Shown here piece after piece: positions 19,217 to 23,000 of a DNA stretch of 64,000 nucleotides. How positions within the stretch are numbered: the first letter of the stretch is position 1; each line of letters opens with the position of its first letter. Both the position numbers and the translations under genes were made by a program. The stretch comes from a virus (taxonomy: Duplodnaviria; Caudoviricetes), in the IMG/VR virus record IMGVR_UViG_3300025011_000016. One strand, given 5' to 3'. The notes below the pieces were generated by a model. The model saw only the letters and a program-made list of their open reading frames with translations. It was not told where the DNA came from and did not search any database.

Positions 19217-19262
19217 AAAGAAACCCCATATGTGTAATCTCATACACATATGGGGTTTCTTT
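19217..19262. terminator. Bidirectional terminator hairpin
   Basis: AAAGAAACCCCATATGTGT-loop-ACACATATGGGGTTTCTTT. Confidence 0.7.
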
Positions 19263-19948
19263 TATGTTTAAGCCAATAATGGTCATTTAAATTGTTAATA
19301 GATATTCTCATCTTAATGAAAATATGTATTAAATACCTAAAACACTTTTAACCATTTTTATTTGAGTAATATTAAAGTTTACTCAAATCCTCCGATAGTA
19401 TCGCCTTCTAAAATAATATCTTCGCCTTCATCCATAGAGGGCTACATATATTATAAGTAGATACGCGGGCAAACACACCATCAGTTTTCTATATCAAACT
19501 AAGAAACTAACATATTTTGTACATGATATAGAGCGTCAACAACTATGTTATATTTCCTTCTACACGTTCAGTAATTATGTCTTAAATATCAAATATTTAT
19601 CTACGTCTAAACAACTTTATATTACAATCTCTAAACTATATACCCTTCCTACTCAGTAAATTGAATAAATGATATTTATACGATTAGTATAGAGGTTAGA
19701 AACTCCACATATTAATTATAATATATGCAGCTTTTCACCACCTTCCCTAGTAAGAATTGTATAATACTTTAATTAAGTATCGTTACAAACTTAAGAGGGG
19801 CCTCACCACCTTTCTATATATAATATAGTAGGTTAGTGATAAGGGTTAATAATAAGGCTTTGCTATATAATCACCTTCATTTCTGTTAACTATTATTGTG
19901 GTGACACATTATAACCATCCTTTCTTATTTTATAATACTTATATTAGT

Positions 19949-19958
19949 ATAATATATA
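19949..19958 (-). promoter_or_regulatory. TATATATTAT motif, candidate early promoter (also at +8505, +32771; -26746, -28259, -29263, -45046)
   Basis: Identical 10-mer recurring upstream of non-structural genes; resembles the phiKZ early TATATTAC consensus. Confidence 0.55.
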
Positions 19959-19980
19959 TTTTAATTATCTTAAAATACGA

Positions 19981-20023
19981 TAATGAGATAGAGCTATGTT
20001 TTACACATAGCTCTATCTCATTA
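19981..20023 (-). terminator. Terminator hairpin after the RNAP gene
   Basis: TAATGAGATAGAGCTATGT-TTTAC-ACATAGCTCTATCTCATTA. Confidence 0.65.
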
Positions 20024-23000
20024 ATCATTTTCGAAACGTGTCATCATATATAGTGTATGAACACCCTCATTGGTTGTCTTTCTCATATTACTACCAGCGA
20101 TATTTAGAATATGAGCTTTAGATGTCATAATTTCAATAGCTTCTTTATTAGCTTCTTGACTAAATAAACCCTTTACTGTAACCTGATCCAAAATATTCAT
20201 ATAGATATTTAATCCATACAGTTCTCTTATGAACTTCCCTATATTAATATAGGATATTAGACTATCTCTTCAATAGAATAAATCTATTGTTTTCCCATTT
20301 CGATATATAACTATATCTACGAATTACTTCTAGTCGTTGAACCTTTCTCTTATATAAGAGACTTGGCTGCGGATTGTCCAATCTTCCATTAAAGAAGCTA
20401 TAAGGAGTTTCCCGACAGTTAAGGAAAATACGGCAATACAATGACCGTCGTACATGTAAACTCCATATTTTCATATGGCATGGACTATATCTTCACCGTA
20501 TAATAATAAATTATTAATTAGGTGTCCTGCACTTCCCAACTAACCCACAAATTAGTCAGTACACTACTAACTACTATATAATTATATGATAGTAATTTTC
20601 GTTAGTCTCTACATCTTCTCTAATTAATTTACATATTTTCACATATTGTAATTTTAACATGGGGGTTTTTATTTTGGGTGTATCATTTAGTTTAGACTCT
20701 ATTTTAATCAATATTTCATTACGGGAATTTTTATCACAATAGAATACAAAATATCCTTGAATAATACGTCCAAATCGAACCGCATGAGTTACAGAACTTT
20801 TATTACTATCTATTGAATCAGCAAATGACTTCGCTCCTTGGAATATATGAAATAACCCATCTTTAAATGCAATTATAGGTTTAGATTTATCTCGTTTAGT
20901 TTGTTCAGAATGTCTAAATAATTTTGTACTTTCACTCATCTTATATTTAGACTCACTATTCATAGTTCCACCGACCCCACCTGTTTTCTTATTATATCCA
21001 ATATTAGGATCATTTGCTTTTAAAGTTGATATCCAATATACCTCTTTTTCGTTCATTTCATTTTTAGAGGTGCATGTGTCTATTATACTGCAATCAAAAT
21101 TATTAAATCCATATTCATTAACTATTTTTATAATATGATATAAATTCGATTTCCTATTAAGCTTTTTATACTTATAATCCTTAAGTCGTGAATGTAGATT
21201 TATTGTCTGACCAATATAAATTTTACCATCTATATTATTTCTCAACATATATATTACACCAAAATGTTTTTTCGATTCAATTATTAGATCATCATTATAC
21301 ATAATAACCCCCCTTATTATATATAAGTTAGTATAAAAGTATTTTTTTACAATATATGAATTTCGTAAATCAATTAAAGCTTGACACGGTATTTCCAGCT
21401 ATCCATATTTCAGGACCTTAGGTTCTCTTACGAAGCTTATTCGTCAATGCTTATTTCACTTCTACCGTTAGCATGAGTATTGTGATACCCATACACCGCC
21501 TGTTAAGCGTTCACAGGATTTTTAACTAAGCTATTTCTAGCAAAGGGAGACAACAACTTTTATCTCCGTTTAAACCAGGTAGATATAAATTTGACATACT
21601 CACAGTATCTGCAAATAGAGTGGATATTTCTTCTTTAGGTAAACTAAGATCGATCCTAGGATAATTCGTATAGACTCTATTTCCAATAAACATCGGTATA
21701 GTTTGGTGGGTACTTAGGACTGATATTTTGTTAGGAAAGCTACTGAAATAATCTGAAATAGGATATCTCGTAACGAATACCATTTTATCTGATGTAACAT
21801 CAACTGCCGCTTGATATAAAATATCACACCAAGTTGCCTTCCTTTGTACTAAGGGAGATTCAGTTTCAGGAACCCCTGGTTTATAATCTTTTCCTATAAA
21901 TCGCATATATAATTTCTTCCCATCAGATCTAGGTTCCTCGACGGGAAGTTCAATTGGTGTAAATCTATCGGATACACTAAATATGAATCTATCAATTTGT
22001 TTTTTAAGATATTCTTCGTTGAAATATAATGAGGGATCTTTTAATTTCACATATCCCATGGAACCGTCCGGATTTCTTACAGGATACTTATTACCAACCT
22101 TCTCTAATTCTCTATGGAAGAAATTTTTAACCCAATTTATTATAAATGGTGTAAATAATGAACATGTTTGTGCAAGAGGAATACCAACATGATAAAAATC
22201 TATTTGCATCTCAGATGGTTTATTTGCTTTGAATATAGGTGCAGAAATTCGTTTATTCATATAGAATATAACTCTATACAGTTCTCTCATGAACTTCCCT
22301 AATTTTCATTAGGATACTAGACTATATCTTCAGGAAATTAAGAATTCCTGAACTCCCATTTCAATACAATAATGTATCTAACTCACGGTAAATTAATATA
22401 ACCATATTTCCGTGTGATAGTCGTTGAACCTTATTCTATTAGATAGAATCTTGGCTGCGGATTGTCCAAACTTAAACATTGTTACTTTAAGTGGTTTAAG
22501 TTCTAAGGAGATTCCCGACAATTAAGGAGCTACGTGCAGTAAATCCACACTCCTCGATCCGAAATCAACCGATTTACCCATTAAATTTTTTCTAATTAAT
22601 CCATTCTTCTTTTCTATTCTACCTTTGAGCAAATCATAAATTTCTACTAAGACTTCCTGAACCTTAGCCCTAGTTCCATTAAGTACAAAATCAAAATTAT
22701 TGGAGTTCCTCAACACAGTTGCGAATCTTAATAATTTAGCGTACTTATCATTGATCTCATGATGACTAATCTTACCCTGTGTTGCTGATTGTAAATTAAC
22801 ATCACGATAGAATGCTGGCACTACAATCCAGTACTCAGTAAATAAAGTATCTTTATCATACGATCTCAGCAAGTCAATTCTTTCACTACGTATAGAACTG
22901 GCATTCTTTTCAAAGTTTATTTTTTCCCAATTTTTATATAAGAATTCTAATCCAGTCTCACCAGATTCCTCAGCTTCAACCAATTGTCCATTTTTATCTA

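Follow-up and report, generated by a model that had tools for sequence, protein, structure and literature searches.

A candidate split ribosome-binding site, bridged by a predicted long-range RNA helix, for a conserved micropeptide gene of uncultured jumbo phages

A short and seemingly non-coding unit in the genome of an uncultured jumbo phage carries a conserved micropeptide gene whose ribosome-binding site may be split, with its two halves brought together at the base of a long RNA helix. The unit lies within a 64,000-nucleotide stretch of DNA (hereafter the window, meaning the whole stretch that was analysed). Judged by the way its codons change among relatives, a small acidic open reading frame (the micro-ORF) is a real, conserved protein-coding gene, and the same comparisons suggest that the micropeptide is the one conserved product of the unit. 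We consider it probable, at a chance of roughly two in three, that the last of four strong Shine-Dalgarno (SD) sites in the leader (SD 4) is the micro-ORF's own SD, as part of a split ribosome-binding site. On the basis of modelled folds, the architecture is a much larger variant of a known translation-initiation signal, and it is kept, with covarying arms, in roughly eight independent lineages of uncultured jumbo phages. The case for this reading is built from conservation, coding signature, helix covariation and the geometry of spacing.

The phage and its relatives

The source contig is an IMG/VR record of 118,479 nt with 31% G+C, and the window is its reverse strand. Proteins of the window are also recorded from a contig of 272,509 nt, which indicates that the 118,479-nt IMG/VR record is a fragment of a genome, and near-identical DNA is present as short sequencing-run contigs in groundwater and sediment samples from three studies. 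The phage is a jumbo phage with split RNA polymerases of the phiKZ/AR9 type. Its virion RNA polymerase (RNAP) beta'-like gene is interrupted by group I introns, of which the genome has at least 16, and by a gene for a GIY-YIG endonuclease. The nearest cultured relatives of this polymerase gene are found in jumbo phages of Staphylococcus, Listeria and Bacillus.

A DNA search with the unit against cultured phages gave no match, and the micropeptide motif is absent from the cultured phages examined. The records of five more distant relatives yielded only promoter-like matches in a DNA search and no match in a search for the micropeptide. Relatives were found through neighbouring proteins: a small neighbouring protein led to L149 and L150/L151, and a structural-protein search (50-58% identity) led to L155, L157, L158, L160, L161 and L162, and later to L165 and L166. 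A unit in the same slot is present in eleven related metagenomic phages, and the acidic micro-ORF is its most conserved element in all of them. Every lineage identified through the structural protein has an early promoter directly 3' of the terminator of the polymerase gene and, just upstream of the bidirectional terminator, a micro-ORF of one family. Relatives with 36-42% identity in the neighbouring structural protein have only about 200 nt in the slot, and from these the unit first gave the impression of a recent insertion, which the conservation seen in closer lineages overturned.

The flanking genes of L149 and L150/L151 are about 70% identical to the window at the DNA level, and the non-coding stretch reaches 69-77% DNA identity to L149 and L150 over the stretches that align. 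Identity is about 50% at the third codon positions of the flanking genes, 60-77% in the central non-coding part and 80-89% in the acidic micro-ORF. Given that both the non-coding part and the micro-ORF exceed the third positions, we regard the unit as old and under selection. Searches by nhmmer and blastn with an alignment of the window, L149 and L150 detected no similarity to L155, L157 and L158 beyond the promoters.

Boundaries and coding content of the unit

A first-pass annotation of this region, made from its letters, had proposed a transcription unit of about 700 nt ending at a bidirectional terminator. The promoter motif, SD-like sites and micro-ORFs that it named are all on the minus strand as it said, and the unit is indeed self-contained, with hairpin terminators at both ends (Table 1). 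We infer an early mRNA about 730 nt long, which the injected virion RNA polymerase would probably transcribe.

Table 1. Features of the unit and its surroundings in window coordinates, in the order in which the minus strand would be transcribed.
Feature	Position	Strand	Remarks
Virion-RNAP beta'-like gene, three exons	23271-22522, 22290-21526, 20200-20021	-	upstream of the unit
Hairpin terminator T1	19981..20023	-	19-bp stem; terminator of the preceding late gene (final exon of the gene in the row above)
Early promoter (virion-RNAP type)	19949..19961	-	10-mer at 19958-19949; predicted transcription start near 19942
Orphan SD 1 and 7-codon upstream ORF	19886..19924	-	SD 19924-19915; ORF 19909-19886, not conserved
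Orphan SD 2	19868..19877	-	without start codon; predicted pairing with an upstream pyrimidine tract
Orphan SD 3	19805..19814	-	without usable start codon; predicted pairing with an upstream anti-SD-like tract
SD 4	19735..19744	-	proposed to be the SD that the micropeptide gene uses; followed after 2 nt by the 5' helix arm
Predicted helix, 5' arm	19704..19732	-	core 19731-19716
Enclosed RNA domain	19470..19703	-	234 nt; inner hairpins; anti-SD-like box
Predicted helix, 3' arm	19440..19469	-	core 19456-19441; stops 4 nt before the AUG
Micropeptide gene	19379..19435	-	18 codons plus stop, acidic; no adjacent SD; core motif [LIFYVM][ED]G[DE][TV][IMCLV]G
Bidirectional hairpin terminator	19217..19262	.	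20-bp perfect stem with T runs on both strands; used by the unit and by the convergent plus-strand genes

The early promoter of phage AR9 has been defined experimentally as a 13-nt AT-rich consensus with a 6-nt spacer and a purine start, and it is read by the injected virion polymerase (PMC5312081). Positions 19961-19949 of the window agree with this consensus at 13 of 13 positions (PMC5312081). The predicted start nucleotide is an A in the window and a G in AR9, and both occur in the genome of the window. The promoter 10-mer has 26 copies in the 118-kb record, about 20 of which precede the SD and start codon of a real ORF by 30-50 nt; the copy at 19958-19949 is the sole well-formed one that has no sizeable ORF after it. 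The early promoter is conserved in L149, L153, L155, L157, L158, L160, L161, L162, L165 and L166. On its upstream side, the stop codon of the last RNAP beta'-like exon (20200-20021) sits within the stem of T1, and in L149 and L152/L153 the position of T1 is taken by hairpins that differ in sequence.

No long ORF exists in the unit in any frame or under any stop-codon reassignment, and an alternative genetic code was rejected for this reason. The density of stop codons equals the random expectation. A decayed gene of a known family was likewise discarded, given that frames read through with X matched nothing in PHROGs or Pfam and that the genome has no paralogue. The unit has no similarity to the TnpB IStron or omega RNA elements of the genome and is therefore not taken as a relic of these, and its count of GGA is about as expected, which speaks against a CsrA sponge. 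We also considered a third intron, which would make the micro-ORF the spliced C-terminal exon of RNAP. This reading was ruled out because the last recognized exon has its own tail and stop codon, conserved with synonymous changes, and because a conserved early promoter lies in between and Rfam offers no intron match.

The sense RNA of the unit folds better than its shuffles (z = -4.4), with antisense values of -1.7 to -2.3. When the covariance models of Rfam 15 were run against the window, L149 and L150, they recovered generic hairpins alone, far below threshold, and no group I intron, abundant as these are elsewhere in the genome. A scan of IMG/VR for a doubled 10-mer pattern returned unrelated coding repeats only, and a scan of IMG/VR and genome contigs with a pattern for the ORF core returned no match.

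An acidic micropeptide gene

The first-pass annotation held that the unit contains no real gene, and it set the acidic micro-ORF aside for its missing SD. That view has to be abandoned, because this ORF is the best conserved part of the unit and has a clear coding signature. A core of 11 codons, compared over nine lineages, has identities of 0.71, 0.82 and 0.35 at the first, second and third codon positions and a dN/dS of about 0.3, and all four glycine codons are used. The start and stop codons are kept across the relatives, and insertions and deletions come in multiples of three, including a 33-nt in-frame insertion in L149. The core motif has ten matches in the six frames of 292 kb of the relatives' loci, every one of them in the syntenic micro-ORF, and L165 carries a one-residue variant of it. 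The products are strongly acidic and have 13-29 residues in the relatives (counted from the last Met) and 18 in the window. We found neither a family nor a function for these products.

Three minor observations concern this gene. A hairpin at 19361-19387 overlaps the stop codon of the micro-ORF, and, judged by eye from the alignment, L149 and L150 appear to carry other hairpin sequences there. The peptide core (19382-19435, minus strand) bears a faint resemblance, probably by chance and too slight to build on, to the Mg-binding D-x-D-G-D loop of RNAP (20189-21561), and the intron-split gene for this loop stands just upstream of the micropeptide gene. Two distant relatives that have no such unit (L003:8614-8835 and L004:8584-8802, both on the minus strand) end their last RNAP exon with an acidic C-terminal tail of 15-19 residues, whose slight similarity to the micropeptide (acidic, D-I, T, aromatic, acidic end) is too weak for homology.

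A predicted helix between the SD and the start codon

Ordinary genes of this genome have a strong SD 3-10 nt before the start codon, with a median of 6. The best local SD of the micro-ORF has a dG of 0.2 in the window, and in every lineage with the helix this value is -5.4 or weaker. The helix emerged from an unbiased scan, free of prior assumptions, in which any upstream segment could serve as pairing partner for the 48-nt stretch that ends at the start codon. In all eight lineages scanned, the best partner starts 0-6 nt after an SD of dG -11.7 to -16.5 and the 3' arm ends 3-6 nt before the AUG, with helix dG values of -22 to -32 kcal/mol and 76-334 nt enclosed. The observed energy was reached by none of 25 shuffles in each of eight lineages (shuffle z -2.9 to -7.2). 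The same rule holds in ten of ten long-form lineages, two of which were tested after it had been set. One of these, L166, has an SD of -16.5 followed after 0 nt by a helix of -25.4 and, 3 nt later, by an AUG without a local SD. The other, L165, fits with a longer spacing (6 + 6 nt = 12 nt), and 1 of 25 shuffles reached its observed energy. The window, L149 and L150 share their arms, so that these data represent about eight independent lineages and not ten.

The sequences of the arms differ between lineages, and when each upstream region was set against each 3' segment, the own-lineage pair came out strongest in all rows of the matrix. For the window, L149 and L150, RNAalifold recovers the same closing helix, with G-U transitions. 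The predicted helices have 22-30 bp with few irregularities in ten lineages and about 26 bp in the window. SD and AUG are separated by 137-408 nt in the eight lineages measured and by 299 nt in the window. In relatives, the position of SD 4 holds a perfect GGAGGTGA. If the helix is counted as zero length, the spacing becomes 5-12 nt (about 6 nt in the window), compared with 3-10 nt in ordinary genes. The gap between SD and AUG lies beyond the working spacing, the computed fold closes this gap, and relatives carry complementary changes. L162, the sole lineage without the helix, has a compact unit of about 150 nt in which the same peptide gene follows an adjacent SD (dG -11.5, spacing 6).

In the arrangement that we propose, the sequence just after SD 4 would pair with the sequence just before the AUG and loop out the 234-nt domain. 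A 30S subunit could then bind the SD and the AUG together across the base of the helix, and translation of the peptide would come to depend on the fold.

As a separate observation, each arm (19441-19456 and 19716-19731) of the window, L149 and L150 carries a copy of the early-promoter 10-mer that deviates in one base, a C at the first position. These promoter-like 10-mers lie one on each strand, facing each other, and the arms of the other lineages have different sequences.

Strong SD-like sites in the leader

The four strong sites of the window pair with the 3' end of 16S rRNA at dG -10.8 to -12.1 kcal/mol, all inside 190 nt. Genome-wide, orphan sites of equal strength occur about 0.3 times per kb of strand, from which about 0.06 would be expected per 190 nt. 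The run of strong SD-like sites that the first-pass annotation described is genuine in its four very strong members; the other three are weak, and the last of them (GGAGG) lies inside the conserved micro-ORF. Its further statement that the sites lead only to micro-ORFs or to no start agrees with our finding that most lead to no conserved ORF, but the fourth would serve the acidic ORF by way of the helix.

Additional sites with dG <= -10.8 are present between the predicted RNA start and the proposed working SD in seven lineages. There are two to four each in the window, L149, L150, L155, L160 and L161, and three in L165, and they lead to nothing or to non-conserved ORFs of at most 15 codons. 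An SD-like tract near the 5' end is found in L149 and L150 as well: the first site lies at about +19 in the window, at +2 in L149 and at about +25 in L150, and at +70 to +107 in L155, L160 and L161. Among the window, L149 and L150, the SD tracts are alignable and conserved and are stronger in the two relatives, where orphan SD 3, for example, is kept at dG -15.8 (L149) and -16.7 (L150); the start codons are not conserved. In the models these tracts are mostly paired with pyrimidine tracts, at a probability of 0.1-0.5 of being unpaired. Outside the SD tracts the identity of the leader is 0.55-0.60, barely above neutral, which suggests that some of the orphan SDs may be relics.

Orphan SDs 1-3 are SD-like tracts in a 5' untranslated region without a conserved start codon, as are the stabilizing SDs (STAB-SDs) of Bacillus mRNAs. 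By analogy with these, the orphan SDs are probably stabiliser or standby sites, or else duplicates of the real SD. Rather than starting genes, SDs 1-3 would hold 30S subunits or pair inside the leader and so stabilise the long untranslated 5' part of the RNA, and some of the leader SDs may have arisen by copying of the true one. A stabiliser of this kind would stand near the 5' end of the processed RNA and lengthen its half-life in hosts with a 5' exonuclease; for the present phage this RNase J-based argument goes by analogy.

The leaders of three relatives have further contents. That of L165 (L165:7100-7400, minus strand) consists of three tandem modules, each with a strong SD and an ORF of 7-9 codons, whose peptides are alike (K-Q-Q-F type); these repeats suggest repeated duplication of an SD-start module or of the true site. 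In L157 (L157:6967-7290, minus strand) and L158 (L158:7513-7986, minus strand), the stretch from the early promoter to the micropeptide SD is occupied by intact, unrelated genes (107 and 157 residues), and the leader thus also appears to be a slot for cargo genes.

The enclosed domain as a possible control point

Among the window, L149 and L150, identity in the enclosed domain is 0.60-0.77, compared with 0.35-0.64 (about 0.5) at the third codon positions of the flanking genes. The inner hairpins show some compensatory changes in the RNAalifold model of these three sequences, with 9 pairs changed on both sides. The domain contains an anti-SD-like box that is conserved in the window, L149, L150 and L157, and thermodynamic models pair the SD with this internal box. 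Given this predicted pairing, the open form of the ribosome-binding site may be a minority state.

The enclosed domain could serve as a point of control in several ways, by alternative pairing of the SD with the anti-SD box, by a bound factor or by RNase III cutting of the helix. We raise only as a tentative idea that the domain is a switch that gates translation of the early micropeptide by setting SD-to-anti-SD pairing against the long-range helix. It is equally speculative that such a switch would respond to folding kinetics, to a factor or to RNase III. If true, however, no functional split ribosome-binding site known would come near this one in length, and it would represent a new type of phage early-gene control that was kept while the insert turned over between lineages.

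Alternative explanations

RNase III stalks flank rRNAs and occur in the early RNAs of SP82 and T7, and Panganiban and Whiteley reportedly described RNase III processing of phage early RNA in Bacillus in 1983. The helix might be chiefly a stalk of this kind, in which case cutting would free a small RNA of 76-334 nt and would end or change translation of the peptide, and the nearness of SD and AUG would be secondary. The predicted helices, with 22-30 bp and few irregularities in 10 lineages, offer the approximately two turns of near-perfect double-stranded RNA that characterize RNase III substrates, a cut within the helix would separate the SD from the AUG, and the enclosed domain of the window, L149 and L150 is conserved above the neutral level with compensatory changes in its inner hairpins. 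What a stalk leaves unexplained is the constant placing of the arms, with the 5' arm in every case starting 0-6 nt behind a strong SD and the 3' arm stopping 3-6 nt short of an AUG that has no SD, at a normal summed spacing. Furthermore, the enclosed domains of distant lineages have no detectable similarity and vary more than fourfold in length. We therefore think it unlikely that processing is the chief role of the helix. Processing and a split site could nevertheless coexist, and since a helix this long is a likely target of RNase III, we retain cutting as a rival or additional mechanism. The inverted repeat might also act at the DNA level: it could form a cruciform, bind a protein, or mark the two ends of a small mobile element inserted between SD and AUG. 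This reading has far less to recommend it. The compact form in L162 does suggest that an insertion happened between SD and AUG, and the arms in the window, L149 and L150 do resemble the early promoter 10-mer. However, the genome has no other copy of the repeat, and the arms differ between lineages yet stay complementary, G-U pairs included, which points to selection on RNA pairing and not on a protein-binding sequence. We hold this explanation to be barely credible.

The leader (19942-19745) might instead be the wreck of one or more early cargo genes, such that the micropeptide gene alone is functional and the orphan SDs are leftovers. The unrelated intact genes that L157 and L158 hold in this position would fit such a history, as would the near-neutral identity of the leader (0.55-0.60), the usual distance between the promoter and the first SD and ATG in the window, and the duplication suggested by the tandem SD-plus-mini-ORF repeats of L165. 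Against it, the SD tracts are conserved, and even stronger in L149 and L150, whereas start codons are not; no frame retains a trace of a protein family and the genome has no paralogue; and the tracts outlast about 30% divergence in sequence whose stop density is fully random. A decayed ordinary gene cluster was also one of the outcomes that the first-pass annotation had named as fatal to its proposal, and the relatives searched for it display conservation, not decay. We accordingly give a wrecked leader a low probability. The same annotation had suggested, as speculation, either a micropeptide operon or an RNA that sequesters ribosomes or an anti-SD factor early in infection. A micropeptide is indeed involved, but the sequestering role has no positive support. 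It is true that an early promoter is followed by several strong orphan SD-like sites and that seven lineages keep such sites. A decoy would require far more accessible sites per RNA than the 3-5 found here, which are predicted to be mostly base-paired (probability unpaired 0.1-0.5), and the comparative data add nothing in its favour. Moreover, one of the SDs serves a real ORF on the split-site reading, and the leaders of L157 and L158 are mostly occupied by ordinary genes (107 and 157 residues). We regard a decoy as very improbable.

Comparison with known systems

Split ribosome-binding sites are represented by a few textbook cases, with gaps of 20-30 nt. In T4 genes 38 and 25, a hairpin reduces SD-AUG distances of 22 and 27 nt to 5 and 11 nt (PMC3014915). 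As in those genes, more than a working distance separates the SD and the AUG of the present unit in primary sequence, folding of the RNA between them would restore that distance, and one subclade of related phages conserves the arrangement whereas others do not have it. The T4 gap holds one small hairpin, whereas here there are 137-408 nt with a predicted long-range helix of 22-30 bp and a domain of 76-334 nt. The T4 cases rest on mutagenesis and the present one on computed folds and comparison. Unlike genes 38 and 25, the gene here encodes an early peptide of 13-29 residues.

In Escherichia coli thrS, a folded domain interrupts the ribosome-binding site and is accommodated by the ribosome without unfolding; this hairpin is a tRNA-like operator bound by ThrRS and serves as a control element (Sacerdot et al. 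1998, cited in PMC3936740). Folded RNA would interrupt the site of the present unit in a similar way; the insert here is much larger and varies between lineages, and it has no known ligand. The present split site would be about ten times longer than those of T4 genes 38 and 25 and thrS.

For the orphan SDs, the closest parallels come from Bacillus. Strong SDs without start codons are described as prolonging the life of Bacillus mRNAs, including the polypurine 5' stabiliser of an SP82 phage early RNA (Hue et al. 1995; PMC7509114), and the STAB-SD of Bacillus thuringiensis cryIIIA is described, as cited, as a ribosome-binding stabiliser (Agaisse and Lereclus 1996; cited in PMC5737220). The likeness lies in a strong SD-like sequence within a 5' untranslated region that lacks a start codon, and in the case of SP82, whose host is a Bacillus, also in its being a phage early RNA. 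The present leaders differ in having several sites each, and a stabilising role is proposed for them by analogy. If the analogy holds, their recurrence in early leaders would extend the STAB-SD idea to uncultured phages.

A conserved natural series with gaps of 137-408 nt, set beside a sister lineage whose SD is adjacent, would reveal the amount of structured RNA that a bacterial-type ribosome tolerates between SD and start codon, and the lineages form a ready comparative set for experiments. It also appears that the sole conserved gene of a unit can be an 18-codon ORF without an SD, dismissed by gene callers and by a careful reader. This bears on the annotation of jumbo phages and on the discovery of early micropeptides, which often act on the host.

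Early cassettes in the same slot of cultured phages

Early cassettes of the AR9/PBS1 type share with the present unit the promoter consensus and the slot after an intron-split virion RNAP beta' gene. AR9 differs in that only 236 nt occupy this slot, which holds no such peptide and a 59-codon ORF. In the Staphylococcus phage MarsHill, the slot after the intron-split RNAP gene (L164:7780-8270) has a terminator hairpin and an exact early promoter of the AR9 type, and it also carries a gene for an acidic protein of 99 residues. The presence of this cassette in an equivalent slot suggests that early cassettes are widespread there among jumbo phages of Bacillota. The 59-codon ORF of the Bacillus phage AR9 (L163:9453-9689, after g145) comes immediately after the virion RNAP beta' stop codon and was left unannotated in the record; it has a good SD and resembles a small membrane peptide unrelated to the micropeptide.
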